Source: a virus
Lineage: Duplodnaviria > Caudoviricetes
IMG/VR virus record: IMGVR_UViG_3300011334_000248
Span: 1-28,849 of that record
Length of the DNA stretch: 28,849 nt
Strand: one strand, 5' to 3'
In this document: positions 6,297 to 28,400 of the stretch, piece by piece
How positions within the stretch are numbered: position 1 is the first letter of the stretch
Layout: each line of letters begins with the position of its first letter
Position numbers and translations under genes: made by a program
The notes under the pieces: generated by a model
What the model saw: the letters and a program-made list of their open reading frames with translations, nothing else
The model's database searches: none
Told to the model about the DNA's origin: nothing

Positions 6297-9200
6297 ATGG
6301 CATTTATTACAGAAGCTGACGCTTTCCGCCGCCCGGCTGATGCCGCAGCACCCCCCGCCAGTACGCCGGCAGCTCCGGCAAAACTTGGCAATTTTATCAC
6401 GGAGGAGGAAGCTACGGGTTATTCAGCAGCTCCGTCTGCCTTTGATATTCTAGGTGGCCAAGCGCGTGCAGTGACTGAACGTGTAAGTGCGGGCGCTCGT
6501 AATCTAGCACGACCTTTTTCCAGCGTGCTTTGGGATGCAAAACCAGCTCCGGCTTTTGACACTGATCCTGCAGCCAATCGTTTCTATCGGGATCGTAGTG
6601 TGAGTCCAGGCTCAGTAATGTTTTCGCAAACGAATCAAGCAGATACTCGCGCCGCGCTAGAGAAGGAGCTTGCAGGTGCTCCACCGCCGCCTCCGACATT
6701 TCTGGGGAATCCGCGGAAGTTTGTTGAGGGAATGACGCTAGGGACTGTCGGACAAGTCTCCGATATGTTCAGCAGTATTCCTAAGAGCGTAATAGGCAGT
6801 GCGGTTTATAACTACTCGCGGCTCTACGATGAACTGTTTACGAAGCTACCCCGCGCAGAAAGTGTTAAGAATGCACAGGCACTTAAAGATAAATGGCCGC
6901 AGGAACTTAACGCACCCTGGAGTGTCGTAGCTAAGGCAATGGGGCCAGATGCACTTTATTTTTACGAGAACAATCCCGTTGCTTTTGTCATGGGGCATAT
7001 TGGTAAAGGGATTGAAACCGCAGCTAGCGGTGCAGGTGCTGCGACTGGTACGCCTGTTGGGGATATAATGAATTTGGCTGATGCCACAATGGGCTGGCTG
7101 GGTGTGGCGGGGGTTAAGAAAGGCGTGACAAGTTCGGTTAAAGCTCGCACAGCGCAGCTGCGTGGGGCGCTTGAGCCCAAGGCGCCTGTTGTACCGGGGG
7201 GTGTAGAGCCTATGTTTGCCGAAGGGCCACTTGCGCCCGAAGCACCTTTGGCTCCTGCGGCACCAGCTCCAGGAATGGGAGCGCGTTTACGCGGAGCGCT
7301 GCAAGGTGTGCGGCGGGACTTTCGCGAAGCATCTGCAATGGGAACGGACGCAGTGGCCGCGGCAGCAGAAGCTGTAGCTGCGTCGAAGGCGCGGATTGCT
7401 GCGCTTACGCCAGAGACCCCGATTGATCTTACCGAAGCGCCGCCGGCTGCCCCGACGAAAGCGGAACTTAAAGCGCAAGCGGATGCAGTTGATTCACTGG
7501 TGGTGGATAAAGCTAAGCTGCAGGAGATCTTTGGCATCGCGGCTAAGAAAGGCCCGGCGGCTGAAGCAGCTTTGGTGCAAAATATCTTTGACCGGGTGCT
7601 AAAGCCCACCACTAAAGTAGAGCCGCCGCCCCTTGCGGAGCCACGAGCTCCTTACGATGCTACTACGTTTCCGCCGGGAGAAGGGCCAAAGACTACTTTA
7701 GCTGAGCTTCCTGTTATAATCGGGGAAACTGTTACACCAGATTTAGTGACGTCTGGGTTGGATAAACTTAAGCAAGGGCTGCTGATCTCCGCGCGCGAAG
7801 CTAAAGCAATTCGAGGATTGCAGGTACGTGCAGGGGAAGGTGTGATTGTAGATCAGTCGGGCGTACCTTATTTTAAGCGCGGTTCTGCCGATCCCTCTTT
7901 GCTCAAGGTGCTTACGCTCATGGGCTTAAGTGGCATAGCGGCGAAACAGATTTATGACTGGTGGAATAGTTCGAGCGGATTATCGGAGGATAACACGCGC
8001 GATGTTGGCATGGGACTGGCTGCCGCCGGTGCTGCCGGGGTGATGAAACCTAAGGGAGGTATGTGGCATCCGTCTGCGGTGCCGGCGCTGGTAAAACCGC
8101 TTCGAGGCACTCAGGACGGTAATGTTATACGAATGTATGGGGATATAGCTCCAGATTTACTTGCGCCTGCAGAAAGTGCAGCACTAAATAAAGCTGTAGC
8201 TATGAATAGCTGGTCAACTAATGTAGTCACCAGATGGCTGAATAAAGAAGCTGGCACTGCAACAGACAGGGCAAAAGATATTACCCTTCCAACAGGAGAG
8301 ACTATAGAATCCCTTACAGACCAGGCGTTTGGAAGTCGGCCAGCTACAGGAATGGGATCACTGCCAAGTAGAGATACACCCGGACTTACCAAGCTTATTC
8401 AAGAAGGTAAAGTGGGCGCAGACACACGAATTTACCAGGTAGCTAATCGGGGCTCCGATGTTCAGGTGGGACACCAAGGCGACAGGATTGGGGAGTCTCG
8501 GGAGCTGCTGAATGGATATTTAAGTCACGTTGGCGATTACATAAGGTCGCTGAATCTTACGCCTGAGAAGCTACAGCAGTACGACCTGCCTCGTGCTATG
8601 CTAGAAACCTCCGCCAATGATGCGAAGATCGCAGCGCAAGCGTTGAAGGACTTTACTAAGCCGAATCCTATTCGTATTGCTGACACGCAAGCATTACCAG
8701 TGTATGAAGGGAAGAGTTACCCTAGCGAGATGGCCCCCGCGCGTAAGTTCTCTTTTAACAAAGACGGTTCGATTAGGAAAATGGAGTCGATTGACTTGCC
8801 GGCAGGGGAAGTGCAGTATACTTGGCATGAGCTGAAGTTGCCGGATGCGCTGACGCCGGAGCAAGCAAGCAGGATTCTTCCTATTGACAGCTGGGGGTCG
8901 AATACGGCTATTGGAAGAGTTCCACCCGATATGCGTTACAAGGCGGTGGATGCAAAGGGTAAGGTGATAATAGATAATTTCAGCGAGCAGCCAGCAGTTG
9001 GGCGTACTCCGGAAGAAGCTCATCTTGCAGGACAGATGGCGCAAGAGGGAAATGCGTTAGGCCACTGCGTAGGTGGGTACTGTGGCAATGTGCTGGCAGG
9101 AGAATCTCGGATTATATCACTGCGTGATCAGCTTGGTCGGAGCTATGCTACGGTGGAGTTGCGGCCCGGTATTTACAAAGGCTACCCTATAACTTTTCGT

Positions 9201-12200
9201 AATACTTTTATAGGACCATCTGCTGCTGATAAAGCATACAAGCCGCCGGAAAACATTGCCCAAATCAAAGGCCCTGGCAACGGTGCGCCAGCGGACTATG
9301 TTAAACCTTACGTGCAGGACTTTGTTAAGTCGGGCAAGTGGGGAGATGTTCTAGATTTAGACAATGCTGGTTTAGTTAGAAACATGGTTACGGGAGCTTA
9401 CGAACAACGAGTTCCTGCTCGCTATGAGCAAGGTTCCTCCAGGCCCGAACAGCTCGCCCTAATCGCCGGCGGAGCAGCCGCGGCAGCCTACCTCGCCAGT
9501 GATCCAGATCCCGACAAGCTAGCTACTCTAGCAACCGCCCTGGGCGCCGGAGTCATCGCCTCACGCGGAGGTAAGTTTGCCGACCTACCCGAAGGGAAGT
9601 TGATTGAGACTTTCCGCGCTGGTGGCCGGGAAGGGGAGGCCGCAGCTGCGCAAATCTGGGAGAATACGAATAGACAGCTAGGTCGGACAATCGGTAATAT
9701 GAATCGGCAGCTGGATAAGGCGGGTATCCAGGATATAAGCCAGCGGGTTTACGAGAAGGTGTTTAAGGCGCTGAAGCAATCCCCCGATGATCCAGGTGGT
9801 TTTCGCGGAGAGGCTAAGCTGTCTACATTCCTTCACGGAGTCGCGTCGAATGAGGTTAAGAATTCCTTTGCCGCCGCTAGCCGCCGACCAGCTACTGACT
9901 CCATGACCGTGGATGCGGAAGGCACGACAGCGGTTCCTGAAAAATACATGATGGAGCAGAATCCTGAGCGCTACCAAAGCGCGGAGGATGTGACGTCTAA
10001 CAATCAGCTTGCCCAGCAAATGCAAAAGGCGCTGGATAAACTGCCTGAGGACTCTCGAGCGTTGTTTGAAGCTATTGAGATGGAAGGCCTGTCGTATCAG
10101 GAGGCAGCGGATCGCTTTGGAATTCCAATTGGAACTGTGCGCTCACGGGTCAGTCGGGCGAAGGATGCGCTAGGGCAGAGCCTGCGGCAGTACCGTACTC
10201 AGGGGGGAAAGATTGACACAGATGCGGTAATTGCTCTGGGCGCGTTAGGCAGCGGAGTGGCTCTGGGTGCGTATCTGGACTCTGACAATCCTATCCGCGG
10301 CGGGGTGCTAGGGGCAATTGGCGTAGCTGGGTTTGGGGCAATGGCAAAAGGCAAGCCAGGAAAGGGTCTCGAGTATACGCTAGGGTTAGTCTCAACTAAT
10401 CTAGGCGGTATATCCCAGCCGTTGCTGCGGCGCGCAAGGGATTATGAACGCTTTGTGATGGAACGGACAGATAAAGCACTGGATGCAGTTACACCTTTTA
10501 TTAAGGGAATTAAGAAACTACCCGCAGCGGCAGCTGATGCGTTAAATCTAGCGTTATTGCGGAATGATCTGGGCGAAATTACAGCGGCAATTAAGGGCAA
10601 TCCTGTGCTGGTAGCAGGGTATAAGCAGGTACAGAATCTTCTTGCAGCATTCCGGGCGGAGCAGATTGCTTTAGGCCGCTTTGCCGCCGGAGTTAATGAT
10701 TACTTTCCGCGGGTGCTTAAAGACCTAGAAGGGCTTAAGAAAGCACTAAGCTTGCCAATGCGTACGCACCTGGAAAATGCTCTGGCAAAAGCTGAAGCGG
10801 ATATGATTAAAGCGCGCGGGAGAGGGTTAAGCGATGTTGAGCGTTCACTTGTTGTTAATCGCTCGCTGCTAGCTTCTGCTCCTAATGCAAACTTGCCCGG
10901 GTTTGCCAAGGCGCGCGGGGTGGATGTTACGGCAGACCTAGCGCAATTCTACATGACACCTACGGAATCGTTACTGCGATATATCGTAGGTGCGATTGAA
11001 GATGCGGAAATGGCAAAGTTCTTTGGGAAAGACCTTGCGTCGAAGAAGCTAGCAAACGGGCAAATGGCTACGCACGTAGATGACTCGATTGGTAATCTTA
11101 TCCAGAGTGAGCTGAAGTCCGGAGCGCTTTCCGCTGACCAGCAACTTGCTATTAAAAGCATACTTGAGTCTCGCTTCAAGCAAGGCGAGCAGCAGATGGG
11201 TGGGTTTTTGCAGGATGTGCGGAATGCGACTAATATAGGATTGCTAGGTAACTTTGCCTCCGCAGCTACGCAGATTGGCGATTCACTAATGACTGTGTAT
11301 CATCACGGTTTAATGCCTACGCTTGGCGCGCTGCGGATGAAGCTGACCGGGTCTTCCCAGATTACGCCAAAAGAGTTTGGGCTAGTCAATCATATCGCAG
11401 AGGAAATGGGCAGTACACGTATTACTGGTAAGGCGTTACAGACTTTGTTTAAGTACACTGGATTTTCCGCCATTGATCAGTTTGCTAAAGGGTTGAATTT
11501 GCAAGCTGGATTGATTAAAAATCAGCAACTAGCGCAGACGCCGAAAGGCCAAGCAAAACTTGCTGAACGGTGGGGGCAGGCGTTTGGTGCGGAGTTTCCA
11601 CAGTTGCTGCAGGATCTTGCAGCGAAACGGATAAGTGAACCCGTTAAAAGTTTACTCTTTAGCGAACTGTCTAATGCTCAGCCAATTACGAAACTGGAAG
11701 TACCACAAGCATACCTTGATCATCCGAATGGTCGGATCTTGTACCAGATGAAAACGTATATGCTAAAGCAAATTGATGTAGTTCGGCGTGATGCGTATCA
11801 AGAGATTGCAAATGGTAACTACGTCAAGGGCGCGCGGAATCTGGTTGGGCTGGCAGCTGCAATGTCTCTTGCCAATATTCCAGGAGATATTGTTAAAGAT
11901 ATGCTGGCCGGGCGACCAGTCCAGCTAGACAAGATTGACTACGTGGAAAACATATTGCAGAACTTCGGCATCAACCACTACACGATGAGCAAGATTCACG
12001 CAGAGACCAAAGCTAAAGGGGTTGTAGAATTCGCCAAGGGAACTGTTACGCCGCCGATTCTCAGTATGCTTAGCGACCTAGATAAACCAGAGCGGCTGAT
12101 CAAGTACATCCCTGGCGTCGGCCGGCCACTGTACGATCGAGAGTTCGGCGGCAACGAGGCGCGGAAGTGGGCGGAGCTAGTCCAAGCTAAGCGCGTGGAG

Positions 12201-12305
12201 CGCGACCGCCTGGAAGAGCAGTCACCTGCGTTAAAGGCCGAACGTCTTCGCAAGGCGGCAGCTATCAAGCGTAAACGGGATGAGGCTATGCAGGCATTAC
12301 CTTGA
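6297..12305 (+). CDS. large polyvalent ejection protein with PcfJ-like domain and embedded ECF sigma factor
   Basis: 2002 aa; GAGGA RBS; last and largest gene of the ejection block; contains EGNALGHCVGGY (PcfJ-like), sigma regions 2 and 4, three hydrophobic hairpins and a helical C-terminal region (DYFPRV, HPNGRILYQMKTY). Confidence 0.75.
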   Translation: MAFITEADAFRRPADAAAPPASTPAAPAKLGNFITEEEATGYSAAPSAFDILGGQARAVTERVSAGARNLARPFSSVLWDAKPAPAFDTDPAANRFYRDRSVSPGSVMFSQTNQADTRAALEKELAGAPPPPPTFLGNPRKFVEGMTLGTVGQVSDMFSSIPKSVIGSAVYNYSRLYDELFTKLPRAESVKNAQALKDKWPQELNAPWSVVAKAMGPDALYFYENNPVAFVMGHIGKGIETAASGAGAATGTPVGDIMNLADATMGWLGVAGVKKGVTSSVKARTAQLRGALEPKAPVVPGGVEPMFAEGPLAPEAPLAPAAPAPGMGARLRGALQGVRRDFREASAMGTDAVAAAAEAVAASKARIAALTPETPIDLTEAPPAAPTKAELKAQADAVDSLVVDKAKLQEIFGIAAKKGPAAEAALVQNIFDRVLKPTTKVEPPPLAEPRAPYDATTFPPGEGPKTTLAELPVIIGETVTPDLVTSGLDKLKQGLLISAREAKAIRGLQVRAGEGVIVDQSGVPYFKRGSADPSLLKVLTLMGLSGIAAKQIYDWWNSSSGLSEDNTRDVGMGLAAAGAAGVMKPKGGMWHPSAVPALVKPLRGTQDGNVIRMYGDIAPDLLAPAESAALNKAVAMNSWSTNVVTRWLNKEAGTATDRAKDITLPTGETIESLTDQAFGSRPATGMGSLPSRDTPGLTKLIQEGKVGADTRIYQVANRGSDVQVGHQGDRIGESRELLNGYLSHVGDYIRSLNLTPEKLQQYDLPRAMLETSANDAKIAAQALKDFTKPNPIRIADTQALPVYEGKSYPSEMAPARKFSFNKDGSIRKMESIDLPAGEVQYTWHELKLPDALTPEQASRILPIDSWGSNTAIGRVPPDMRYKAVDAKGKVIIDNFSEQPAVGRTPEEAHLAGQMAQEGNALGHCVGGYCGNVLAGESRIISLRDQLGRSYATVELRPGIYKGYPITFRNTFIGPSAADKAYKPPENIAQIKGPGNGAPADYVKPYVQDFVKSGKWGDVLDLDNAGLVRNMVTGAYEQRVPARYEQGSSRPEQLALIAGGAAAAAYLASDPDPDKLATLATALGAGVIASRGGKFADLPEGKLIETFRAGGREGEAAAAQIWENTNRQLGRTIGNMNRQLDKAGIQDISQRVYEKVFKALKQSPDDPGGFRGEAKLSTFLHGVASNEVKNSFAAASRRPATDSMTVDAEGTTAVPEKYMMEQNPERYQSAEDVTSNNQLAQQMQKALDKLPEDSRALFEAIEMEGLSYQEAADRFGIPIGTVRSRVSRAKDALGQSLRQYRTQGGKIDTDAVIALGALGSGVALGAYLDSDNPIRGGVLGAIGVAGFGAMAKGKPGKGLEYTLGLVSTNLGGISQPLLRRARDYERFVMERTDKALDAVTPFIKGIKKLPAAAADALNLALLRNDLGEITAAIKGNPVLVAGYKQVQNLLAAFRAEQIALGRFAAGVNDYFPRVLKDLEGLKKALSLPMRTHLENALAKAEADMIKARGRGLSDVERSLVVNRSLLASAPNANLPGFAKARGVDVTADLAQFYMTPTESLLRYIVGAIEDAEMAKFFGKDLASKKLANGQMATHVDDSIGNLIQSELKSGALSADQQLAIKSILESRFKQGEQQMGGFLQDVRNATNIGLLGNFASAATQIGDSLMTVYHHGLMPTLGALRMKLTGSSQITPKEFGLVNHIAEEMGSTRITGKALQTLFKYTGFSAIDQFAKGLNLQAGLIKNQQLAQTPKGQAKLAERWGQAFGAEFPQLLQDLAAKRISEPVKSLLFSELSNAQPITKLEVPQAYLDHPNGRILYQMKTYMLKQIDVVRRDAYQEIANGNYVKGARNLVGLAAAMSLANIPGDIVKDMLAGRPVQLDKIDYVENILQNFGINHYTMSKIHAETKAKGVVEFAKGTVTPPILSMLSDLDKPERLIKYIPGVGRPLYDREFGGNEARKWAELVQAKRVERDRLEEQSPALKAERLRKAAAIKRKRDEAMQALP
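9024..9330 (+). other. PcfJ-like domain within the 2002-aa protein (about aa 910-1011)
   Basis: EG..LGHCVGGY...V..G..RIISLRD......TVEL...QIKG.GN follows the PcfJ family signature. Confidence 0.7.
9576..10190 (+). other. RpoE-like ECF sigma-70 domain within the 2002-aa protein (about aa 1094-1298)
   Basis: Region 2: QDISQRVYEKVFKAL...FRGEAKLSTFLHGVASNEVKN. Region 4: ALDKLPEDSRALFEAIEMEGLSYQEAADRFGIPIGTVRSRVSRAKDAL. Spacing and ~205-aa length match a whole ECF sigma. Confidence 0.9.
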
Positions 12306-12313
12306 AAATAAAT

Positions 12314-12341
12314 GGAACTAAAGCAACAGTCTCGGGTCTAA
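12314..12341 (+). promoter_or_regulatory. sigmaE/ECF-type promoter, GGAACTA-N16-TCTAA
   Basis: -35 element at 12314-12320, 16-nt spacer, -10 element at 12337-12341; intergenic, just after the stop of the sigma-bearing gene. Confidence 0.75.
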
Positions 12342-17735: not shown

Positions 17736-18037
17736 AGCATCCTCACTCTTGTTTTCTTACCACGTTTAGTAAAACACTGAACCCGACCATCCGCAAGCAA
17801 TTCCCAGCCTGCGTTTTCTCCACACATTGCTTGAGCAGCAGCTTCGAAACGTGCCCAGGCTTCGGCGGCTTCTCGAGCATCCCGGGCGGCTGCAGCAGTA
17901 TCCCGAGCCGCCTGTATTTCATCGGGCCAGTCCAGCATATAGCTAGTGCTGAGAATCCCCGCAATAAGGAATACGAGTAGGAGGTTGAGGAAACTGTTGT
18001 ATAGTTCGCGTGGTTTATTGAATGATAATTCGCGCAT
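17732..18037 (-). CDS. hypothetical membrane-anchored protein
   Basis: N-terminal TM (LLLVFLIAGILSTSY) and AAQAMCGENAGW...VQC..KRG C-terminus; tiles between neighbours. Confidence 0.65.
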   Translation of the reverse strand: MRELSFNKPRELYNSFLNLLLVFLIAGILSTSYMLDWPDEIQAARDTAAAARDAREAAEAWARFEAAAQAMCGENAGWELLADGRVQCFTKRGKKTRVRML

Positions 18038-18040: not shown

Positions 18041-19285
18041 TTATCCAAACTTAGTATCAGGTGTAATTGCCGCCTGGGGGATCGAGTGCGTTGCAGGTGA
18101 GGCGGAGGTGGCCTGCAACATAATTCCTGCTGCGGTGCTTACGATACGAAGCTGCCCGGAGTTTATTGCACCGGATAGGATTCCTTCGAAGTCGCGGAAG
18201 TCGGGAAAGTAGATATGGATCATCTTGTAAGCATCGTGGTAGGGGACGGAACCTTTGCGACGGACAAAGTCAATGAAGCGTTCAGCTTGCATAGAGTCTT
18301 CCGTGCGACCGATGCGAGAGAAGACTCGGTGCATATCTTGCTCGAGATCTTCTAGCATTTCGTTGGCGAGTTGAAGGTCTTCGGAGGTGAGGATCAGGGA
18401 GCTGGAGCGGGAGGCAGAAAGCACCATTGCGACCTTGTGCATATGGGTTTGCTTGCGGGCGGCGTAGCCTTCCAGCATCTGATCATCCATACGGGAGGCG
18501 GCGTCCTTCCAGAACCTCTCGTACCAAGCGCGTCCCCACTCCCGAGCTCCGGAGGAGATAGTGTAAGGGCCGGTGAGCATAGCGATGCGCTCGAGGTCTT
18601 CGATGAGGTTAGTTCGCATCTCGACGTCGCCAGCGCCTACTTGCTCGTCGACGTAGGCAACGTAGCGTTCCTTGGTGTCTCCGTAGACAAAGATGCAGCG
18701 GGAGGACAGTCCGCCGCCGATCATAGCTTGGGGCATATTGTCAGCAATCCAGTGCGGGGTAGTGCCAGCTTGCAAGTTGATCCAGGGCGCTTCGATGATA
18801 TCGTTCCCTGACATTTTGGTTATCTTCTCGTAGGTTTTCTTTCCGTCCCAGAGCTCGATGAGTAGGTTTATCATCTCCTTGTCTTGCAGGTTGAGGAGGG
18901 AACCAAGTTCCGAGGCGACCAGGGTGAGCGGCGACATAGGATGCCACTCGGCATTGTACTCGAAGGATTCGGAAGCGGCAGCGAAAGCGGTGACGAGGGC
19001 TTGCCAGGTGATAGCGTTCGGGCCGAACTTGATACCGGGAACTTGGCGAAGCAAGTCTGTCGATATGTCGATGGTGGTGGACTTGGCGATGATGCCGGGC
19101 GGCCCTACGAAAATTATGTAGAATGAAGGATACCAGCAGAATCGCTTCATGTCAATCCAGACTCGGCGGCGCAGGCAACCGGCGACGGTGCCTACAGCGC
19201 TCCAGAAGTGCATACGCTTCGGCGCCTCGGTGACGGAGGCGTACTGGAGATACTGGGGAATCCAGTCAGGATAGTTGCGCGTCAT
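18041..19285 (-). CDS. DUF3987/YfjI-like P-loop protein, putative replicative helicase
   Basis: Walker A-like FVGPPGIIAKSTT, Walker B-like LVASELGSLL, LWDG and GLSSRCIFV; coupled to the polymerase gene. Confidence 0.7.
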   Translation of the reverse strand: MTRNYPDWIPQYLQYASVTEAPKRMHFWSAVGTVAGCLRRRVWIDMKRFCWYPSFYIIFVGPPGIIAKSTTIDISTDLLRQVPGIKFGPNAITWQALVTAFAAASESFEYNAEWHPMSPLTLVASELGSLLNLQDKEMINLLIELWDGKKTYEKITKMSGNDIIEAPWINLQAGTTPHWIADNMPQAMIGGGLSSRCIFVYGDTKERYVAYVDEQVGAGDVEMRTNLIEDLERIAMLTGPYTISSGAREWGRAWYERFWKDAASRMDDQMLEGYAARKQTHMHKVAMVLSASRSSSLILTSEDLQLANEMLEDLEQDMHRVFSRIGRTEDSMQAERFIDFVRRKGSVPYHDAYKMIHIYFPDFRDFEGILSGAINSGQLRIVSTAAGIMLQATSASPATHSIPQAAITPDTKFG

Positions 19286-21744
19286 GCACAGTCTCCCCAG
19301 GAGATGGAAGAAGTCTTAACGCCTGTGGGGATGATCAGCGGCGGGTCGTAGGGGATCTCTATGCGGGAGTGCTTTTCCATGAGGGGCAGGATCGTGGCGG
19401 AGCGGTGCGTAGGGAACTGCCCAGCAAGGGAGTCGTGGACTTGGAGGAGCACTTGGACTTCCGGTATGTTTTCGTAGAAGGAAGTCCAGATGCGATTGAT
19501 AAGGATACCGACAGTGGACTGGGGAACCCAGGCAAGGGCTTCGGGGAGGAGCGCTTCGAGTCGGTCGAAAATGTACCAGCGGTAGCCCCAGCGATTCTCT
19601 ACAAAGCGATGACGATTGATCTGGTCAAAGGTGCGGGTGTGCCACTCTCGGATGCCGGGATGGGCGGAGAACCAGTACTTCTGCGCAACGTCGATTTCGT
19701 GGATCGTGCGGCCAGTGTGGGCGGCGACTGTCTTGGCACCTCCGCCGTAGTTGGTGGCGTGGCAGAAAACCTTGGCGAATTCCCGAGCGTGCTTGAGGGG
19801 AGCGCGATGGTCGCGGTAGCTAGGGTGGGCTTCTACCAGCTCGTCAAGGGGAGGCGGGGACTTCTTGGCCAGGATGTAAGCGTTGCGCAGGTGCATATCT
19901 ACGCCTTGGAGCATGGCGGCTACCCAGTCCGGCTCGGCGGCTTCCCGCACGACTACTTGAAGATCCGCCCGATCCAGATCCATGTCGAAGAAAGTAAAGC
20001 CTGGATCTGGGCCATACATACTGCGGATGTTCGGGAGAGTGAAGTCCATAGATCCCCGAGCTGCGGCCTTGCCGGACGATTTGCTCTTCTCAGAAGGGAT
20101 TGTTTGGAGATTTCCGCCAGATCCGAAGGGGTTCTTGGACGAAGAAAGGCGATAAGAATAAGGCGCAGATTTTCCACCGGCATCTCCAGCTATGTTGAAG
20201 GAACAACGCATCCTGCCATCATCGTCTAGCGGCATCATGACGAAGTCGCCGAGGAACTTGTTAAGGGTACGAATGTCTGCGATGGCGTTGCAGAGGGGCT
20301 TGACAAGGGGTTCCTTGGCGGCGATCTTGCTGAGGGCTTCGTCGTCGCAGGTTGGGTTCATCGTGGTCTTGCCGGCGAGGATGACGCGCTTGTAGATGAC
20401 AGGCTGATTAAGGTCGTCGTAGAAGAGAGTCTGCATTTGCTTGGGGGACGCAGGATTGATTGTATGGCCGAGGACATTGTGGAGGAAGGCTTCGCGGTGG
20501 GAAAGTTCTTCCTGGATATCAAGGGCCATCTGGTTCTTGACTTCATGGCGGATGCGGACTCCACGGAGCATAGCGCGTAGGACAGGGTAGAAGAGCTTTT
20601 GCTGGTGTACGTCAACCTCGGCAAGGTGCATGGATTCGGCGACCTGGGCAAGAATTTCGCCGGACTCGCGGGTGTAGACGCAATCCTGAAGGTTGTAAGT
20701 CCAGCGTTGTTCCTCCGGGACGTCAGAGGCAATCTTCCCTTCGTCTTTCCAGTAGACGTACCAGTCAGCATACATGGAGGCAAGGAAGGCCAGGCCCTTA
20801 GGCAGCGCACAGAAGACACTGTGCTGAGTTATCATCGTGTCCTGGCCGCCATGGGGGATGAAGTGCCAGTGGCGATAGACATACTGTGCATCGTAGAGGC
20901 CGTTCTGCCAGCGTACCTTGACGTTAGGGTGCGTAAGCAAGCGGTAGATTGCGAAGACAATCCGGGACTCTTCGTCGACTGACCAATAGCCTTCGGGCTT
21001 GCCTCGAGCCATCAGGGGAATACACAGGGCGTCTTGGCGCGACCAGCTGAGGCCGATGCAGTCTATATGTCCTCCACGCGTCTCGATATCGAAGTCAATC
21101 CAGACTGTCTCGGCGAACGCAGTTGCGTCAGAGTGCAAGGCCTGTAGGCAGTTAAGTGCTTGCGGGAAAGTTGGGCGGACGAGGAAGTTCCAGACAGGCT
21201 TGTTATCGTAAGTGCGAGAAGTCATGTGGCGCTTGAGGCGACGGAGGTCGGAGAGAACTACTGCGCGCTGGTTCCACTCCCGCATGACTGCGCCCGGGGT
21301 GAGGGTTGGAATTACCTTGATGCCGGCCGGGGTGGAGAGAAGAGACCCGCGCCACTTGAGCACACCCCAGTGACCTGTGAGGGCCCAGAGTGCTAGGTTG
21401 CCCATGGCTAGGATGATGTTTGGCTGAACCATCTCGATTTCAGTGAGGAGCTCTGCATAGCCCTCGTGGATGTGGTAGGTACAGTACTTGTCCTTGAGCA
21501 AGGTGTGATGGGCGGATATGTCTTTCTTTTTCAGAGCAATCCAGGTGGACAGCTGGCCCAAGGGAGGACGCTCCTTGCAGACGTAGGTAGTGTAGCACTC
21601 CGAACGCATCACGCCGACTTCGTGGAGCATACGATTAAGCTCCATGCCGGAGGCTCCGTCGAAGGGCTGGCGGTCACGCTCGGCAGGGAACTCCCCGACG
21701 ATCATCACTCGGGTAGGGATAGGGCCTTCGCCTTTTACTCGCAT
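19282..21744 (-). CDS. polA: family A DNA polymerase with N-terminal uracil-DNA-glycosylase-like domain and 3'-5' exonuclease
   Basis: UDG-like GEG.....MIVGEFP..PFDGASG..L..ML; exonuclease DFDIET, QNGLYD, YNLQD; polymerase motifs DMDLDRAD, REFAKVFCHATNYG, LLQVHDS. Confidence 0.9.
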   Translation of the reverse strand: MRVKGEGPIPTRVMIVGEFPAERDRQPFDGASGMELNRMLHEVGVMRSECYTTYVCKERPPLGQLSTWIALKKKDISAHHTLLKDKYCTYHIHEGYAELLTEIEMVQPNIILAMGNLALWALTGHWGVLKWRGSLLSTPAGIKVIPTLTPGAVMREWNQRAVVLSDLRRLKRHMTSRTYDNKPVWNFLVRPTFPQALNCLQALHSDATAFAETVWIDFDIETRGGHIDCIGLSWSRQDALCIPLMARGKPEGYWSVDEESRIVFAIYRLLTHPNVKVRWQNGLYDAQYVYRHWHFIPHGGQDTMITQHSVFCALPKGLAFLASMYADWYVYWKDEGKIASDVPEEQRWTYNLQDCVYTRESGEILAQVAESMHLAEVDVHQQKLFYPVLRAMLRGVRIRHEVKNQMALDIQEELSHREAFLHNVLGHTINPASPKQMQTLFYDDLNQPVIYKRVILAGKTTMNPTCDDEALSKIAAKEPLVKPLCNAIADIRTLNKFLGDFVMMPLDDDGRMRCSFNIAGDAGGKSAPYSYRLSSSKNPFGSGGNLQTIPSEKSKSSGKAAARGSMDFTLPNIRSMYGPDPGFTFFDMDLDRADLQVVVREAAEPDWVAAMLQGVDMHLRNAYILAKKSPPPLDELVEAHPSYRDHRAPLKHAREFAKVFCHATNYGGGAKTVAAHTGRTIHEIDVAQKYWFSAHPGIREWHTRTFDQINRHRFVENRWGYRWYIFDRLEALLPEALAWVPQSTVGILINRIWTSFYENIPEVQVLLQVHDSLAGQFPTHRSATILPLMEKHSRIEIPYDPPLIIPTGVKTSSISWGDCA

Positions 21745-23081
21745 CAGAGTCCAATCGACAAATCAAGTTCTAGCTGAGCGCGCAAGGCAGTGATCCGCTT
21801 GCAGGCGATGCCGTAGCTAGCCTGATCCATCTCGATGCCAGTTGCCCGAGCTTTCATTGCGTGGGCAGCGGGGAAGACAGGCCCGCTGCCACAAAAGGGG
21901 TCAAGGACAGCTTGGCCAGGAAGGACAGATCGCCGAAGCAGGTCTTCGAAGAGCGCCACCGGCTTCTGCGCGGCGTGGCCGAGATTGCTGTCAGGCGGGT
22001 AGTCGAGAACGTCTCCGAGCATCTTGAGGATCGGCCGCTTACCCTTGACGGCGTAGAGGAGCGTTTCGTACTTACGCTGGGGGCCTTGCTCCGGCCAGGG
22101 TGCGCGCATACCGGACTTCTTGTACCAGATAAGAGGAGTGCGGAAGACGTTCCAGCCGGCCTCGATCATCAGGGATTTGAGCTGAGCGAACTTGTCGAAG
22201 TCGCAGAAACAGTAGAGGTGCGCTTGAGGCTTGGCGATGCGGTAGCCCTCGAAGGCTAGGGCAGTCACACAGCGTATGAAAGTTTCGTAGGTGTCTTCAT
22301 AGCCGTGAGCGCCGGCGGCTAGGCCACCCGAGTCTCCGAACTCATCTGCACCCATGCCGTAGGGAGGATCGGTTAGGATACAATCGAAGCTGTCGGCTGG
22401 GCAATCCTGCATCCAGCTGATTGAGTCCGCGTGGACTGCCTGGTGCATATCGGCAGTGAAGGTCTTGCCGACGGAGGCTCCGAGCTCCCGGTGCTTTATT
22501 GCAGTCTCCTCCTTGCGGAGGATCTTAAAAGCTTCATCGACGGTTTTCGCTGCTTTGACGGCGGGATTGTCCAGGTGACCTGCAACAATAAGCTCCCGGC
22601 GCGTGTTTTCTTGATGGATACCTTCGGAGCTCCCGCGAACCTCAAGCGAGATGTCAGCTGTAGTAGGCGGCGGTGTTCCCCGCTGGACTGCCTGGGCGGT
22701 ACGAAGTGTGTTGAGGCGAGCATGGGCGGCTGCGCGCTCCTGCCATGTAAGGTTTTCACGATGGATGTTCTCGGAGAGTTCAGCTTCCTCCGCCGCCAGG
22801 GGGTCGAGGTCGCTGAGGAGAGTATAGGGAATGCTGTTTGCTCGGACGCGCTCGCCATCGTGCATTATCTCTCCGCCGAGGGCGTATAGGTCTGTGACTG
22901 CCCGGAGGCGACGTTCGCCGGCGACTAGGTAGTAATCGTCGCCGACTACCCGCAGTATGATTGGATGAAGCAGCCCCTGCGTAGCGATCACCTCGCCGAA
23001 TTCGTGTAGTTTTGCTTGATCAAACAGCCTACGCTGGCGATCTGGAGCAATCTTGATTGCGTCAACATGGATGAGTTTCAT
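21744..23081 (-). CDS. ParB/Srx domain fused to an N6A/N4C DNA methyltransferase (beta class order)
   Basis: LLHPIILR, LVAGERRLRA, ENIHRENL; TDPPYG, H.AQKPV.L, VLDPFCGSG. Confidence 0.88.
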   Translation of the reverse strand: MKLIHVDAIKIAPDRQRRLFDQAKLHEFGEVIATQGLLHPIILRVVGDDYYLVAGERRLRAVTDLYALGGEIMHDGERVRANSIPYTLLSDLDPLAAEEAELSENIHRENLTWQERAAAHARLNTLRTAQAVQRGTPPPTTADISLEVRGSSEGIHQENTRRELIVAGHLDNPAVKAAKTVDEAFKILRKEETAIKHRELGASVGKTFTADMHQAVHADSISWMQDCPADSFDCILTDPPYGMGADEFGDSGGLAAGAHGYEDTYETFIRCVTALAFEGYRIAKPQAHLYCFCDFDKFAQLKSLMIEAGWNVFRTPLIWYKKSGMRAPWPEQGPQRKYETLLYAVKGKRPILKMLGDVLDYPPDSNLGHAAQKPVALFEDLLRRSVLPGQAVLDPFCGSGPVFPAAHAMKARATGIEMDQASYGIACKRITALRAQLELDLSIGL

Positions 23082-23090: not shown

Positions 23091-23135
23091 AAAAAGAAGA
23101 AAAAGGGGACGAGCACCGAAGCACTCGCCGCCCTA
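23091..23135 (-). terminator. Rho-independent terminator with cUUCGg loop
   Basis: Minus strand GGGCGGCGAGTGC-TTCG-GTGCTCGTCCCC followed by a T-rich tract, just after the SSB-like gene. Confidence 0.75.
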
Positions 23136-23145: not shown

Positions 23146-23631
23146 TCAGCTCGGCAGGATAGCGCCTACGCGCTCCTGGATTGCGTCGTTGTAGAGCTCG
23201 TGCTGTACCTTGACGCGGACAGTCTTCCCTTGCAGCTGGCGCCATGCCCACGGCACGCCTGCGACATTGGTTCCGGTGGCCTCGCGGTAGTCTTTCTGCC
23301 GCCGATTCTTGCCCTTGGAATTGTCCAGTGCGCCCTGCGCTGTCAGGTCAAGGAACGCCCGGTCGCTGAGGGTGAGCTCAGGCGGGATACCAAGGCCCTG
23401 AACGGACGGGGGGATCTGCAAACGCAGCGGAATGACCATCGAGACCCAAGGCTTGCCAGCATTATCACCTTTGCTGATTGTGCCAGAGCTGGTGGTGATC
23501 TCGCCGATGACAGCAAGGTAGAGACCATTCTCGTGGTCGGGGTTCTCCGTGGGAAGCGGAGGGCGCTTCTCGTTGACTTCGGTAACTTGCGCGTCGAGAA
23601 ACACGCTGGGATCGAACTGACTTGTACTCAT
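23146..23631 (-). CDS. putative single-stranded DNA-binding protein (DUF669-like)
   Basis: ATG at 23631 after CAGGAG; PLP.....G.Y.A.I and L.GK.VRVKV.HE.Y patterns; downstream of the Sak4-like ATPase. Confidence 0.55.
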   Translation of the reverse strand: MSTSQFDPSVFLDAQVTEVNEKRPPLPTENPDHENGLYLAVIGEITTSSGTISKGDNAGKPWVSMVIPLRLQIPPSVQGLGIPPELTLSDRAFLDLTAQGALDNSKGKNRRQKDYREATGTNVAGVPWAWRQLQGKTVRVKVQHELYNDAIQERVGAILPS

Positions 23632-23691
23632 ATGAGTAACTCCTGTGTGGTTAACTAGGGACACTTGGCGCAGTCCCCTTCTCGCATCTTA

Positions 23692-23871
23692 CTAGAGATA
23701 GGTTGTTTCACGCTTGACTGGCTTGACGATGACTGTGCCAGGGTGAAAGATTGACGGGGCAGCAGCAACGAGCTTGTGGATTTCCGCTATTGTTGCTTGC
23801 TGCGTCCAGCCGGGAGGGATAGCTAGTTGGACTGTAACGGTGATGAGAGAATAAGATTTCTTGCTCATCAT
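23692..23871 (-). CDS. 59-aa hypothetical protein (absent from ORF track)
   Basis: MMSKKSYSLITVTVQLAIPPGWTQQATIAEIHKLVAAAPSIFHPGTVIVKPVKRETTYL; GGAGG RBS; ATGA overlap with the ATPase stop. Confidence 0.65.
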   Translation of the reverse strand: MMSKKSYSLITVTVQLAIPPGWTQQATIAEIHKLVAAAPSIFHPGTVIVKPVKRETTYL

Positions 23872-24746
23872 ACACCTCCGGAGCGCTTAGCCCATACGTC
23901 CATGACCTGGGCAAAGTCAGGGGTGATCTTGCTGCGATAACCGAGGGAGCGCGTCTTGGTGTCGACTCCGTAAGCGGCAGTGTCCCACCAGAACTTATCA
24001 GCTTCTCGCGTGGTATAGATGATATCGCTGAACAGCGTAGGGATCTCGGTTGCTAGGGCCTTGCCGATAGCCTTGATCATAACCTTGGTGGACTGGGTGA
24101 TCGAGTCGGTCTCGCGGTCTACGTGAGCAGTCATGACGAACGGGCACTCCATTCCCTGGGTGCAGAGGCGAAGGAAGTTCATCAGGTTGTTCTGGGCCAC
24201 GCCGTAGTCGCCGGGACTGGCCATTGGGCGGGAGCCGATCTGCATCTTCATAGCGGCGTTGCTGGTCTCGGTGAGGGAGTCCATGACGAAGATCCTGCGG
24301 GAGGAGAATGCGTCGATAGGGCCGAGCTCCTTGCCGGTTCGGTCGTCCTTGAAGTTGCTGCAGGATTGAAGAATCTTCCAGAAAGCATTGTTGTCTCCGC
24401 CGCGATTGCCATCTACGGACTTAGCCAAGGCCTCGTAGGACAGCTTGCCTACGTTGTCGGCGGTAGCCATGAGGGACTTGAGGGATATGGGCCGCGTCCC
24501 TTGCTGGTGCCAAAAGATACAAGCTGGGGGTTCCTTGCCCTTGTCGCGGAAGTAGCCGAGGAGCGTCTCGAGTCCGTTCTCTGTGAAGAGTACCGCAACC
24601 TCGAATCCGTTCTTGTCTGCCCAGTCGCAGAGCGTACCGATGGCGTAGGTCTTGCCTGTCCCGCCTAGCCCCATCAAGCAGATCTTCGGGCCAACAAGCA
24701 CCTGCTTGTCTTTAGTAACCAGCGATGCTGGTGTGATAGTAGTCAT
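23868..24746 (-). CDS. AAA_24 / Sak4-like ATPase (recombination, ssDNA annealing)
   Basis: KICLMGLGGTGKT, FVMDSLT and VMTAHV motifs; sits between a nuclease and an SSB-like gene. Confidence 0.75.
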   Translation of the reverse strand: MTTITPASLVTKDKQVLVGPKICLMGLGGTGKTYAIGTLCDWADKNGFEVAVLFTENGLETLLGYFRDKGKEPPACIFWHQQGTRPISLKSLMATADNVGKLSYEALAKSVDGNRGGDNNAFWKILQSCSNFKDDRTGKELGPIDAFSSRRIFVMDSLTETSNAAMKMQIGSRPMASPGDYGVAQNNLMNFLRLCTQGMECPFVMTAHVDRETDSITQSTKVMIKAIGKALATEIPTLFSDIIYTTREADKFWWDTAAYGVDTKTRSLGYRSKITPDFAQVMDVWAKRSGGV

Positions 24747-25072
24747 AGTAAACTTTCGTAGTAATCCAGATGAATCTCGAATTCCCGCTTGATGAAGTCA
24801 AGGGAGAGCTCGTTAAGGTTGTAGATAAGTTCACCGAGAAGCAGGGAGCCTGGGATGTTCCAGTAATCTTTATGCTTCCTACAAGCAGCTTCGGCGATGC
24901 GGAAGTGCGCTTGGGTTCCATCAAGGTTTTCTAGGACTACCCGCGCCCAGATTTCTCCGCAGCTGGCACAGAAGTACGCGCGAGAAGGCCAACCCCAGCT
25001 GTCCGCTGCTTGGGAAGCATAGCGGAACGTGCCGAGGTAGGTCTCCTCTGCGATGATGTACCCAGCCGGCAC
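24743..25072 (-). CDS. hypothetical Zn-finger protein
   Basis: YFCASCGEIWARV...CRKH; GTG start coupled to upstream stop. Confidence 0.6.
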   Translation of the reverse strand: MPAGYIIAEETYLGTFRYASQAADSWGWPSRAYFCASCGEIWARVVLENLDGTQAHFRIAEAACRKHKDYWNIPGSLLLGELIYNLNELSLDFIKREFEIHLDYYESLL

Positions 25073-25989
25073 TAGTCTACCTGTACTGTTTCAGTCCGAG
25101 CGACTGGATCCCAGCGTCGGCGCTGGAACTGCTGCTCTAGCAGCGGAGTGGGATCGCGCATCTGGCAGACGGACTTGAAGGGGCAACCTCCGTACTCCGC
25201 GCAAGCGTGGTCTAGGTTCCAGTCCCAGTACCCGGACTCCCATGCCTGGATCATTCGCTTGGCGTCTCGGATGAGCTGCTCGTACCAGCGGTCGATAAGC
25301 CACTGGGGGCGGTAGGTGATGGCTTGGAGAGTGTCGTACTTGGTTTTAAGTATTGATACTCCTCGCACAAGGAATCCATCAAGCTTGATGCCAGCTCTGG
25401 CGGCACCCCAGACATAACCAGTGAACTGGCTGCGTAGATCCCATTGACGAGGCCAGCTTGCTCCAAGCTGCGATGTAGTTTTATCATCTTCTCCAAGGTG
25501 CATCCCTTCGTATTCACACATCATATCCATGCGGCCTGAGTACAGCAGTGGATCGCCGGTTACTGGGTGAGCCAGATCGAGTGGCTCGAGAAAGGAGAAC
25601 TCGATGCCGCGCTTGCCGCCAGGCAGGGTCATCGGGATCGCTTTGTCCTCCCCGAGACGGTACTGGGAGAAGTAGTACTCCAGCGCCCCGGCAGTACGCT
25701 CGGCAGACTTCGCCGATTCGGGAGGACACTCGAAGTCTCCGTAGGCCGTCAGCAACGCCTTGAGACCTAGGGCAAGGGAGTCTTCCGGCGACTTCCCGTC
25801 GATGTAGTAAGCTACTCGAGCCTTCTCAATCCCGGTTGCGTAGGCAGCTCCGGCGTGGAGGTGGACTGACTGGTCACGGAGTTTCCAGTGCTGCATGAAC
25901 TCGAGGTAGGCTTTCTGAGGGCAAGACTTAAACGCCGCCATAGTGGTGGAGTCGAGGACTGCCGGAAAGGGTGGACGCTGGCGGGTCAT
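25072..25989 (-). CDS. PD-(D/E)XK exonuclease, Cas4/AddB-like with Fe-S cysteines
   Basis: FKSCPQK, GRMD...EDDKTT, SQFTGY and C....GCPFKSVC; ATG at 25989 after GGAG. Confidence 0.85.
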   Translation of the reverse strand: MTRQRPPFPAVLDSTTMAAFKSCPQKAYLEFMQHWKLRDQSVHLHAGAAYATGIEKARVAYYIDGKSPEDSLALGLKALLTAYGDFECPPESAKSAERTAGALEYYFSQYRLGEDKAIPMTLPGGKRGIEFSFLEPLDLAHPVTGDPLLYSGRMDMMCEYEGMHLGEDDKTTSQLGASWPRQWDLRSQFTGYVWGAARAGIKLDGFLVRGVSILKTKYDTLQAITYRPQWLIDRWYEQLIRDAKRMIQAWESGYWDWNLDHACAEYGGCPFKSVCQMRDPTPLLEQQFQRRRWDPVARTETVQVD

Positions 25990-26276
25990 ACCGTGTTCTC
26001 CAGGCACAGAAGTTTCTGCAGTTCCTGCTCAATTTCCGCAACAGTTGCTTCGGCTTCGAGACGCGCTTTTGCCTGGGCTGCTCGCATCAATTCCACACGC
26101 TGAGGAACCCAGTTATCCGGCACGTCAAACTCCACGATGTGCAAATGCTCTTTAACTACAACAAAGCACGGATCATGGGGCTTGTGCGTCATAAAAATAT
26201 AGTTATGCGGAACAGCTGGACTATCGTATTTACTAAAGTAGGCTACGATATAGCCCTTGATTTCAACTTGCATCAT
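25986..26276 (-). CDS. hypothetical protein
   Basis: AGGAG RBS; C-terminal coiled coil (IEQELQKLLCLE); ATGA coupling. Confidence 0.65.
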   Translation of the reverse strand: MMQVEIKGYIVAYFSKYDSPAVPHNYIFMTHKPHDPCFVVVKEHLHIVEFDVPDNWVPQRVELMRAAQAKARLEAEATVAEIEQELQKLLCLENTV

Positions 26277-26332
26277 CTTCTCCTAGACTCGAGGGTGAAA
26301 CTGCACCCACAACAGATTCTTTAATCCTTACG

Positions 26333-26827
26333 CTAGGCGTAGGAGACACCGATCCAGCTAGGCTGCTGTCTAGTGCCTCGATAATAAGTACGCGCCCACG
26401 ACGGGTCTTTCGATTGGTAGTACTGACGATATGCCAGCACTGTATCAGGATGCTTATACTCATCAGGCATACACTGTGGCGGGTTTATCCAGCTGAGATT
26501 ACCAGCAATCGCCAACGGCGGCTTTGCGAGCTCGCCAAGTAAGTATTGGTTACACTTATGCTTTTTACCATACCGCTGGGTGTATTCCCTGCACAGTTCA
26601 ATCGCCAGCGTCAAGACATAATTGTATTGATAAGCACTGCCACGAGTCCAGATAGCCGAAGGGTGATTTTTATGCGTAGACTTGTAAGTCACACACTGGC
26701 CATTACCATGCTCATGATGAGCTGTTGCAAGCAATTGGCAGGATTCAACTATCATTTTTATAACGTGCTTGTCGCAGTGCAGTTGCGCTGCAATTTTAGG
26801 CAGACAGTCTAAGTAAAAGATGTTCAC
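26333..26827 (-). CDS. pyrimidine-dimer DNA glycosylase / endonuclease V-like family protein
   Basis: MNIFYLD..P..AA..HCDKHV.KM..ES.QLL, YK.THKNHPS..W, E...RYGK.H, PQCMPD.Y and AYR.YY signatures. Confidence 0.75.
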   Translation of the reverse strand: MNIFYLDCLPKIAAQLHCDKHVIKMIVESCQLLATAHHEHGNGQCVTYKSTHKNHPSAIWTRGSAYQYNYVLTLAIELCREYTQRYGKKHKCNQYLLGELAKPPLAIAGNLSWINPPQCMPDEYKHPDTVLAYRQYYQSKDPSWARTYYRGTRQQPSWIGVSYA

Positions 26828-27048
26828 AGGTCGTCTAGCTCGTCGAGCATGGAGTCTTGGCTCGGCGGAGCAGACCGCTTGGTCGGTGTGCGCTTGGCTG
26901 CAGCGGCAGCGGAGGCAGCGCCGAGGCGACCTGCGCGGAGGAACACGATTCCCTCTCGCATCTCCTCGAGAGTAAGTGTCCCCTCGGTGGCACGAAGGCG
27001 CCAGGATGCGATCTTTGATTGAAGTTCCAGTGGGATAGGATTACTCAT
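26824..27048 (-). CDS. hypothetical protein
   Basis: 74 aa; overlap-coupled on both sides; acidic C-terminus. Confidence 0.65.
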   Translation of the reverse strand: MSNPIPLELQSKIASWRLRATEGTLTLEEMREGIVFLRAGRLGAASAAAAAKRTPTKRSAPPSQDSMLDELDDL

Positions 27049-27319
27049 GATTGCTCAGCAAGGTACGTAGTGCCTTGACTGCCTCGGGGGAGCCGGCGAC
27101 TGTGAACGCGCCCGGCTGGGTGTTGGTGAAAGGGGCGAGATCGAATTGCTCGGCGGTGAAGTAGCCGCGGAGCAGGTCGATCAGGAAGCGAGAGTACCCG
27201 CCGTGAGGCACGCGGCCTTCCAGCTCGGAGTACAAGTGCGCGGTGAGCTGGACGTAAAGAGGCAAGGGGAGTGCCACGTTAAGCTGCTGGGAAGGGATAA
27301 TCGACTTAGTCTTAGTCAT
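27041..27319 (-). CDS. putative ribbon-helix-helix-like DNA-binding protein
   Basis: QLNVALP..LY..L...........YSRFLIDLLR pattern; AGGAG RBS. Confidence 0.5.
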   Translation of the reverse strand: MTKTKSIIPSQQLNVALPLPLYVQLTAHLYSELEGRVPHGGYSRFLIDLLRGYFTAEQFDLAPFTNTQPGAFTVAGSPEAVKALRTLLSNHE

Positions 27320-27497
27320 CGTAGACTCCTAGCAGCAGTCCACCATCTTCATCCGCAGCGGCAAGTTCGAAGCTTGCTTGAGCACTGGTCAGGATAGACT
27401 GGATTACTGTATCTTCATCCTCTCCGTCGACTGTGACGGAAGTCCAGGGATCATCCCAGTCAAGGGAAGATCGAGCTCTAAGAAATATGCGAATCAT
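27312..27497 (-). CDS. small acidic hypothetical protein
   Basis: 61 aa, Asp/Glu-rich; tiles between neighbours. Confidence 0.55.
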   Translation of the reverse strand: MIRIFLRARSSLDWDDPWTSVTVDGEDEDTVIQSILTSAQASFELAAADEDGGLLLGVYDD

Positions 27498-28039
27498 AAT
27501 GGTTGACCTAGCTGGGTGAGAAGGGAGTTGATGGTTGCGCGGGAGAGATCCCGGATTACGTCTGTCCCGGCGGGGAGGATTACTAGCTCGCTGAGGGAGC
27601 TGCCGGGACGGGCAAGGAGCGTGTCGGCGGCGAGTTCTACACGAGTCAGGCAGCCCTCGCCGAAGACTGCGTAGACAGCTGCGGAAGGGGAGGATACGCC
27701 GAGTGTGCGGAACTCGAGGGGGAGTGTGGCGAGGCGAGACTCATGCCAGGCTCGCTTGGGTGTCGGCGGCTCATCGCTGCCAGTCCACCAGCTACCACTA
27801 AGGGTCTCGGTAGCTTCAACTGGCATGGGAGGGTCTTCACGGACAAGCCGGCGAGAACCGGGCTGCCCGCGGTGGAGATACTCGGTGAAGTTACCGAGGA
27901 GCACGCCGGTTTCTGCGTGGATGAGAGCAATACCGCGGGAGCGATACCAGACAGACGAGGTTACGGCTGCTGGAGTTGGCGTGGCGGAGCGAATCGCAGC
28001 GATAGCTTCGCTGAATAGATCGTCAAGGGAAGTTTCCAT
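27494..28039 (-). CDS. hypothetical protein (181 aa; start METSLDDLF)
   Basis: ATG at 28039 with GAGG upstream; the longer track start overlaps the 28119-28334 gene and the promoter. Confidence 0.65.
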   Translation of the reverse strand: METSLDDLFSEAIAAIRSATPTPAAVTSSVWYRSRGIALIHAETGVLLGNFTEYLHRGQPGSRRLVREDPPMPVEATETLSGSWWTGSDEPPTPKRAWHESRLATLPLEFRTLGVSSPSAAVYAVFGEGCLTRVELAADTLLARPGSSLSELVILPAGTDVIRDLSRATINSLLTQLGQPL

Positions 28040-28086
28040 GAGTGAGCCTCGGTTTGCGCGAATTATACAATCATAATCCGCATTGA

Positions 28087-28114
28087 TTAGACATGAACTG
28101 TTTGTGAAAGTTCC
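28087..28114 (-). promoter_or_regulatory. sigmaE/ECF-type promoter, GGAACTT-N16-TCTAA
   Basis: Minus strand GGAACTT (28114-28108), spacer TCACAAACAGTTCATG, TCTAA (28091-28087); intergenic, at the head of the replication/recombination operon. Confidence 0.8.
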
Positions 28115-28118
28115 ACAG

Positions 28119-28334: not shown

Positions 28335-28359
28335 AGGTTGAGCCTTGAACAGAGCCTTG

Positions 28360-28400
28360 AAAAAACACCGGGGAGGCGAGCTTTATAGTCCCGCCTCCCG
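28360..28400 (-). terminator. Rho-independent terminator
   Basis: GGGAGGCG / CGCCTCCC stem (28392-28399 with 28371-28378) followed on the minus strand by GTGTTTTTT. Confidence 0.65.

Follow-up and report, generated by a model that had tools for sequence, protein, structure and literature searches.

A site at positions 28087..28114, on the minus strand of the phage DNA analysed here (the window, a whole record of 28.8 kb), is almost certainly a promoter of the sigmaE (RpoE/AlgU, ECF02) type, and it belongs to an array of such sites that likely drives both gene arms of a phage clade. The virion/lysis arm of the window lies on the plus strand and the replication arm on the minus strand, and an RpoE-derived ECF sigma domain is built into a giant protein encoded in the position of an ejection protein. 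On balance we lean towards a reading in which an injected and likely RseA-resistant phage sigma would start early transcription, and the sites could be read by host RpoE as well.

A predicted sigmaE-type promoter upstream of the replication genes

Read directly from the sequence, the minus strand from 28114 to 28087 is GGAACTT TCACAAACAGTTCAT GTCTAA, with the -35 element GGAACTT at 28114-28108 and the -10 element GTCTAA at 28092-28087. The E. coli sigmaE -35 consensus is GGAACTT (PMC1540707, in part), and the ECF02 -10 consensus is GTCTAA in Table 4 of PMC13492112, whose authors applied it there rather than measured it. A twin on the plus strand, at 12314-12341, reads GGAACTA AAGCAACAGTCTCGG GTCTAA. 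An earlier, sequence-only reading of the window had reported the same spacing in the two sites and no other full match; both indeed read GGAACT-N16-GTCTAA, and a scan of the window allowing at most one mismatch recovered the same two and none else, with 0.07 expected and two matches reached in 0 of 100 shuffles. A looser pattern (GGAACT N15-18 TCNNA) gave a third match at 6902, within the big ORF described below, a total of three being reached in 2 of 100 shuffles. Scanning for the sigma70 consensus returned chance levels, with 3 matches against 3.1 expected in 23000-28849 and 9 against 7.7 in 12000-18500.

The placement given by the sequence-only reading was also borne out, as the site begins 4 nt past the stop codon of ORF 28334-28119, with 47 nt from its end to the ATG at 28039. 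This ATG opens the first gene of the replication run (27494..28039, minus strand), which encodes a 181-aa protein of no family and has an SD-like GAGG 7 nt before the start codon. A 267-aa reading of ORF 27494-28297 that passes through the site was rejected, as in the relatives this gene begins at the equivalent of 28039, preceded by an SD. The consensus match and the presence, in most relatives, of a syntenic site ahead of the homologue of the 28039 gene uphold the view that a sigmaE-type promoter heads the replication run.

On the minus strand beyond the first gene lies a 92-aa protein (27041..27319) that has no Pfam match and is ribbon-helix-helix/MetJ-like by language-model features (MetJ cluster 0.91, rank 22). 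The run at 23146..26827 contains a pyrimidine-dimer glycosylase-like gene (26333-26827), a PD-(D/E)XK exonuclease (25072-26007), a Sak4-like ATPase (23868-24746) and a gene labelled SSB-like by the sequence-only reading (23146-23664), which has no family match of that name. The early arm ends with a ParB-N/DNA methylase, a UDG-PolA polymerase and a primase-like gene (18041..23081, minus strand), the ParB-N/methylase fusion occupying 21744-23081 and the UDG-like domain being fused to the PolA polymerase at 19282-21744. By tblastn, no match to the pyrimidine-dimer glycosylase-like gene was found in 13 relatives. As a terminator-like hairpin (23108..23129, minus strand) separates the SSB-like gene from the MTase, polymerase and primase genes, expression of the polymerase may need read-through, although six such hairpins were found against 4.2 in shuffles, so that this one is not above shuffle level. 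Of the single run from promoter to polymerase that had been proposed, the promoter at its head stands and the continuity up to the polymerase is qualified by this weak hairpin.

The twin site (12314..12341, plus strand) begins 8 nt past the stop of the ejection gene and is a candidate internal late-arm promoter; it is present in only part of the clade. In the relative G004 the equivalent of this site is followed by a 257-aa gene (11598-12371, L052) with lysozyme-like motifs by eye, for which no PHROG match and no meaningful Pfam match was found. Relative to this gene, G002 and G003 show a gap of similar size, and the window has the promoter without the gene.

Sites of the same type across the clade

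Only 735 nt of the window lie upstream of the site, so that just the last member of the array is visible in it. Relatives were collected with the sigma domain, the exonuclease and the primase as queries, and 40 records chosen for length were read, three of them only to 20 kb. Early sites were counted with a relaxed pattern in the region preceding the 27041 homologue, to a maximum of 13 kb, in 38 sequences, a set that leaves out G002 and G003, as near-copies of G004, and G019, as too distant. Of the 11 sigma-bearing records whose early region exceeds 2.5 kb, 10 showed 3-7 early sites if G027 is included, which scored 0 because its four sites sit at the other contig end. The individual counts for sigma-bearing records were three in G026, four in G008, five in G004, G017 and G028, six in G006, G018, G025 and G041, and seven in G009 and G039. 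The window and G048 have one early site each, in less than 2.5 kb, and G040 is without an early region. A reversed-pattern control gave 0-2 matches per record.

Among 105 early sites, a 16-nt spacer was present in 97, a GGAACT start in 94 and a GTCTAA end in 62, with the sequence of the spacer nearly free; since the scan pattern was tuned on the same sites, this composition is partly circular; the circularity does not extend to position and orientation. No record has more than one site that does not face the replication genes, and most of those that face them are followed by an SD and a start codon within 130 nt. A divergent site within 400 nt of a small-terminase-like gene was found in 13 of the 15 clade records with such a match (the exceptions being G018, where it is 490 nt away, and G047, which has none) and in 0 of 7 outgroup records, and in G004 the terminase and portal lie downstream of the divergent site. 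Taken together, the early array and the divergent terminase-arm site place a sigmaE-type motif at the head of both arms. Thirteen whole outgroup records contained no site in eleven cases, one in one and two in one, and on the polymerase-primase-exonuclease tree (25 rows) the motif falls in a single clade (SH-aLRT 99). The site noticed at 28087 by the sequence-only reading is real and one of a larger set, whose scale, 3-7 early sites per genome with the same motif on the late arm, that reading missed.

Folding is better in the first 42 nt of the predicted transcripts than in random windows of the early region (mean z -0.84 vs -0.04). Sequence-diverse hairpins lie just past many predicted starts of the early sites, A/T-rich tracts lie upstream of their -35 boxes, and GAGGCTCA recurs around ribosome-binding sites. 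A 208-aa early protein of no family (28514-28849 in the window, partial; 28732-29358 in G004) is matched at up to 93% across the clade and at about 45% in outgroups, and a shorter look-alike occurs near divergent promoters.

A palindrome at the early and terminase-arm promoters

The sequence-only reading recognised the promoter and missed a palindrome that overlaps its predicted start. This palindrome, CGCGGATTAT-N6-ATAATCCGCG with two mismatches, lies at 28057..28082 and is centred at about +12 when the start is assumed to be 6 nt past the -10 box, which makes it a candidate operator. A second copy (18009..18034) lies just past the primase stop and a third (7974..7999) inside the ejection gene, the latter in the same place in several relatives; three copies in the window were reached in 0 of 100 shuffles. 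Across 39 records, a palindrome occurs at +12 to +24 of the 28087-type promoter in 19, and 13 have one at -72 to -98 relative to the terminase-arm promoter, against 0-0.3 in shuffles for either position. It is absent from G029, G031, G051 and G030 and present in the sigma-less G016 and in the outgroup records G036 and G037.

A palindrome downstream of the early promoter and upstream of the late one suggests the layout of a repressor-activator switch. The MetJ-like 92-aa protein (27041-27319) could be its binder, as could an early HTH protein of the relatives, both being offered as a lead only. That the palindrome merely forms a 5' RNA hairpin is less likely, given its fixed 6-nt spacer of free sequence and its copies upstream of promoters and inside genes. 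The TATAAT within the palindrome was not among the matches of the sigma70 consensus scan. Clade records that have the palindrome carry 1-7 copies, some of them among structural genes, and it may have roles beyond the two promoters.

An RpoE-derived sigma domain

The sigma domain (9624..10196, plus strand) spans aa 1110-1300 of the 2002-aa protein and consists of sigma2, a linker and sigma4. Its closest PDB sequences are AlgU (6in7, E 5.5e-17) and RpoE (1or7, 2.3e-16). It passed the cut-off of TIGR02937 (73 bits vs 42.9), and its best-scoring NCBIfam family was the RpoE equivalog TIGR02939, but at 91.6 bits against a cut-off of 236.15. The structural model has a pLDDT of 84.7, and sigmaE and AlgU complexes took ranks 1, 3 and 4 in the fold search. 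In line with the sequence-only reading, the big protein contains a complete sigma of RpoE-like type, and its recognition helix, GTVRSR, fits GGAACTT.

A sigma domain was found in 16 of 41 sequences, every time inside the big ORF, and 33 database proteins of 1,358-2,064 aa contain it. It is under strong purifying selection, with dN/dS of 0.014 and 0.044 to two close relatives and of 0.17-0.19 to two relatives with a much more diverged sigma4 half. In L003 and L004 (10001-10570) the sigma2 half is near-identical to that of the window and the sigma4 half far more diverged, which suggests recombination within sigma. In a tree, 14 phage sigmas fall on one side of a branch and 24 cellular RpoE proteins on the other (92/83); the phage domain is 30-37% identical to cellular RpoE, and the phage sigmas, near-copies aside, are 33-55% identical to the copy in the window. 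The distant relative G062 (L368-L371, protein P0033) has a divergent ECF sigma fused in the same cassette layout; this sigma, possibly a second capture, has a long branch and does not group with the other phage sigmas. G062 has one clear site.

Among the 14 phage sigmas, R176 and T169 are kept in all, R171 in 13 and S172 in 11, as are F64 and E150 in all and N80 in 12. E49, a presumed core-binding residue, and F175 are often lost, each being kept in 4 of 14. Of the four residues that read -35 bases, R171, S172, R176 and F175, the sigma of the window retains the first three and has S in place of F175. In cellular sigmas, R149 and R178 are contacts for D11 of RseA (Table 2 of PMC7406223); this pair is present in 118 of 120 cellular sigmas and in 0 of 14 phage sigmas, and no rseA-like partner for the phage sigma was seen. 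Retention of most of the residues that read the -35 element together with loss of the R149/R178 pair fits a working sigma that escapes its anti-sigma, and the phage sigma is likely RseA-resistant on this residue pattern; as the phage sigmas are diverged overall, loss of the pair may also be drift.

The same residues bear on whether the phage domain could instead be a decoy that mops up RseA and frees host RpoE to read the promoters. Such a role would agree with the retention of both RseA-clamped domains and of E150 (14/14), with the frequent loss of the presumed core-binding residue E49 and with promoters that remain host-like. We nevertheless consider it improbable, since the RseA-contacting R149+R178 pair is lost in 14 of 14 and the base-reading R176, R171 and S172 are kept, the reverse of what a decoy would be expected to show.

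The giant protein in ejection-protein position

The 2002-aa modular protein (6297..12305, plus strand) owes its assignment to gene order. Its ORF is preceded by an adaptor-like gene, by the head-closure gene Hc3 (P22 gp10-like; 981..2405, plus strand), which marks the podovirus virion block, and by three smaller Gly/Ala-rich or helical ORFs, and it is followed by tail-fibre-like and lysis genes. In the gene order of P22, the same place belongs to the podovirus ejection proteins. When the features of such proteins were looked for, the big protein proved to be large, to have hydrophobic segments and to be encoded after head-closure and tail genes. Its conserved C-terminal domain gave no PHROG or PDB sequence match and no homology to known ejection proteins, and since no family was found for this domain, we infer packaging from gene position.

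On the N side of the sigma domain (9417..9563, plus strand) lies a repeat module in which Q/R-x-G-x-x-D is followed by a Gly/Ala-rich hydrophobic hairpin, and further copies occur at 7866-8048 and 10191-10343. The Q-x-G motif of the repeat presumably resembles prepilin cleavage sites. In 15 of 15 sigma-bearing proteins examined, sigma lies directly between hydrophobic segments, in the first or second slot, and it is joined to the hydrophobic hairpins by short linkers. If they entered the inner membrane, the hairpins would put all cargo on one side of it. The cargo slots between the hydrophobic-hairpin repeats are exchangeable, holding sigma, a PcfJ-like domain or others, and their order in G039 and G048 differs from that in the window.

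Relatives without the sigma domain

Three relatives inside the motif clade, G029, G031 and G016, have ejection ORFs of 1283, 1248 and 1547 aa without sigma; no sigma was found over cut-off in these records in any frame, by profile or by Pfam. All three keep a site syntenic with that at 28087, and their early regions contain 6, 7 and 1 sites, respectively, the last within only 2.4 kb of early region. G029 is a complete, contiguous genome with the portal divided between its two ends, and the motif heads its terminase arm as well. Two weak sigma4 matches in small ORFs (15.3 and 12.8 bits, below cut-off) were considered as a hidden sigma and rejected, the one in G031 being a plain HTH protein. A TGAAC start is seen in 6 of the 14 sites of these relatives; as five of the six are in G031, this is not an independent trend. 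By calling the promoter 'cognate', the sequence-only reading had implied a private promoter-sigma pair and had itself proposed a comparison with relatives lacking the sigma; the motif is kept in all three that have a whole ejection ORF and no sigma, and the pair is not sustained.

Further arrays without a sigma came from a strict-motif scan of about one third of the collection, in which 40 long records were picked from the 80 loci listed among 124, and 39 were examined. Six of these 39 (G065, G066, G067, G068, G080 and G096) have 4-8 relaxed sites, some of which may fall within genes in G080, and gave no sigma match, some of them being fragments. If G081 is included, seven other phage records have 3-8 sigmaE-type sites and no sigma match. 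As the sigma-less relatives and these motif-selected records keep arrays, the motif does not require the phage sigma. The record G005 (75 kb, one site, no sigma) was set aside as it is without a virion block; it (L055-L058) joins a clade fragment to unrelated lower-GC sequence, and chimerism is possible.

No co-variation of promoter and sigma was seen either. T172 is linked to A at -34 in the pertinent part of PMC1540707; the phage sigmas of G008, G025 and G027 have T172, yet their sites keep GG. To explain the distribution of sigma, the tree needs two or more changes, either a single gain with two losses or two gains.

That the phage sigma is nonetheless the only reader, in a private pair as in T7, with the sigma-less relatives being recent deletions, mis-assemblies or carriers of an unrecognised sigma, is very improbable. 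In the replication-gene tree the sigma-less records do nest above G039, which has the sigma, excision of the cassette through the repeats is conceivable, and the array was found in 0 of 12 outgroup records scored sigma-less. Against this, G029 is contiguous and has no sigma2 or sigma4 match over cut-off, the branches of G029, G016 and G031 themselves are long (0.21-0.29) with sites intact, and the motif equals the host consensus.

Most likely, host RpoE reads these promoters too, as the sequence-only reading had allowed in its alternative; as the sole reader, host RpoE is a weaker proposition. Under that proposition, which we regard as rather unlikely, host RpoE alone would start early transcription, either basally or through envelope stress triggered by injection, and the phage sigma, acting only from ejection protein freshly produced late in infection, would be a feed-forward booster of the late promoter, inert or lost at injection. 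In its favour are sigma-less relatives with full arrays, a sigmaE site at the head of the late arm that encodes sigma itself, a motif that is invariant across diverged sigmas and a cultured Alcaligenes phage with one perfect site heading its terminase arm. However, a late booster need not sit in an ejection-position protein between membrane-type repeats, and in 16 of 16 cases sigma is a cassette of the big ORF. With the sites kept by sigma-less relatives and the promoters of host type, the phage sigma appears to be an add-on.

The site in the cultured Alcaligenes phage, QDWS535, is a perfect GGAACTT-N15-GTCTAA (OK172329.1, 48814-48841; L400) that lies 53 nt before gene 62, in front of the terminase/portal arm. 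No cultured close relatives of the clade were found, and nine distant cultured records have 0-3 relaxed sites. Two clade fragments (G102 contigs L240 and L388) are binned in a Rhodoferax MAG that carries rpoE-rseA; as a pointer to the host this is too weak, and a binning artefact is possible.

Discussion

In its GGAACTT -35 element, GTCTAA-type -10 element and 16-nt spacer, and in the two-domain ECF fold with the recognition helix GTVRSR, the phage system resembles E. coli sigmaE (RpoE) and P. aeruginosa AlgU (ECF02). Unlike cellular RpoE, the phage sigma forms an internal cassette within a protein of 1,300-2,060 aa; no rseA-like partner was seen for it, and it has lost the R149+R178 pair. Among other phage systems, gp66 of the crAss-like phage phi14:2 is a virion-delivered transcription enzyme and T4 gp55 and SPO1 gp28 are phage-encoded sigma factors; sigmas of the T4/SPO1 type and those of jumbo phages are stand-alone proteins produced after infection. 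The N4 and phiKZ-type vRNAPs are described as virion-delivered transcription enzymes in parts of PMC5512222 and PMC7824862, and the relevant part of the latter describes sigma factors, only stand-alone ones, encoded by jumbo group 2 phages. As with these vRNAPs, a transcription starter is found here in a giant protein among virion genes, with repeated early promoters served; unlike them, it is a specificity factor only, which would borrow the host core enzyme, and its promoters are of host class. With the jumbo group 2, T4 and SPO1 sigmas it shares the role of a phage sigma redirecting host core RNA polymerase, and it differs from them in being an ECF02 sigma in an ejection-position protein, with a specificity common to the host stress sigma. 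The system would be N4-type in aim and T4/SPO1-like in means, and a member of neither group.

The protein itself recalls the phage polyvalent proteins (Iyer et al. 2017, PMC5512222, in part), which are large and multi-domain, lie near virion genes and carry exchangeable cargo domains; here, unlike there, the cargo slots are bracketed by a hydrophobic-hairpin repeat. The word 'sigma' is absent from the main text of that paper. Within a full-text literature search whose scope takes in a minority of subscription papers, no report was found of a virion-carried ECF sigma or of a phage programme on RpoE promoters.

Under the reading we lean towards, in which an injected sigma starts early transcription, the giant protein would be packaged and ejected, its hairpins would enter the inner membrane, and the sigma would be left in the cytoplasm, either tethered or cut out. 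There it would bind host core RNA polymerase and open the early promoters without waiting for the destruction of RseA, the loss of RseA contacts likely being of help to it. An early DNA-binding protein would then bind the palindrome: at +12 it would damp the 28087 promoter, and at -72 to -98 it would activate that of the terminase arm. Relatives without the cassette would rely on host RpoE alone, and the cassette would accordingly be an add-on to a host-sigmaE strategy. More tentatively, and as a possibility only, one may picture a lytic podophage clade that runs its whole programme, early as well as late, on sigmaE promoters: an anti-sigma-resistant sigmaE would be injected and anchored by its hairpins at the DNA entry channel, host RNA polymerase would be recruited as the genome enters, and one early protein would switch transcription over from the replication arm to that of the terminase via a single palindromic operator.

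The known routes are the injection of whole RNA polymerases and the production of sigma factors after infection, and an injected ECF sigma would, if true, be a third. The proposal is unusually testable, as the sigma is intact and RpoE-like, the consensus that the promoters match is well studied, and sigma-plus and sigma-minus relatives occur naturally; an RseA-insensitive sigmaE would, in addition, be a useful tool. The sigma-minus relatives suggest that many phages may tie their development to the envelope-stress response of the host, and the use of host RpoE by phages may be widespread.
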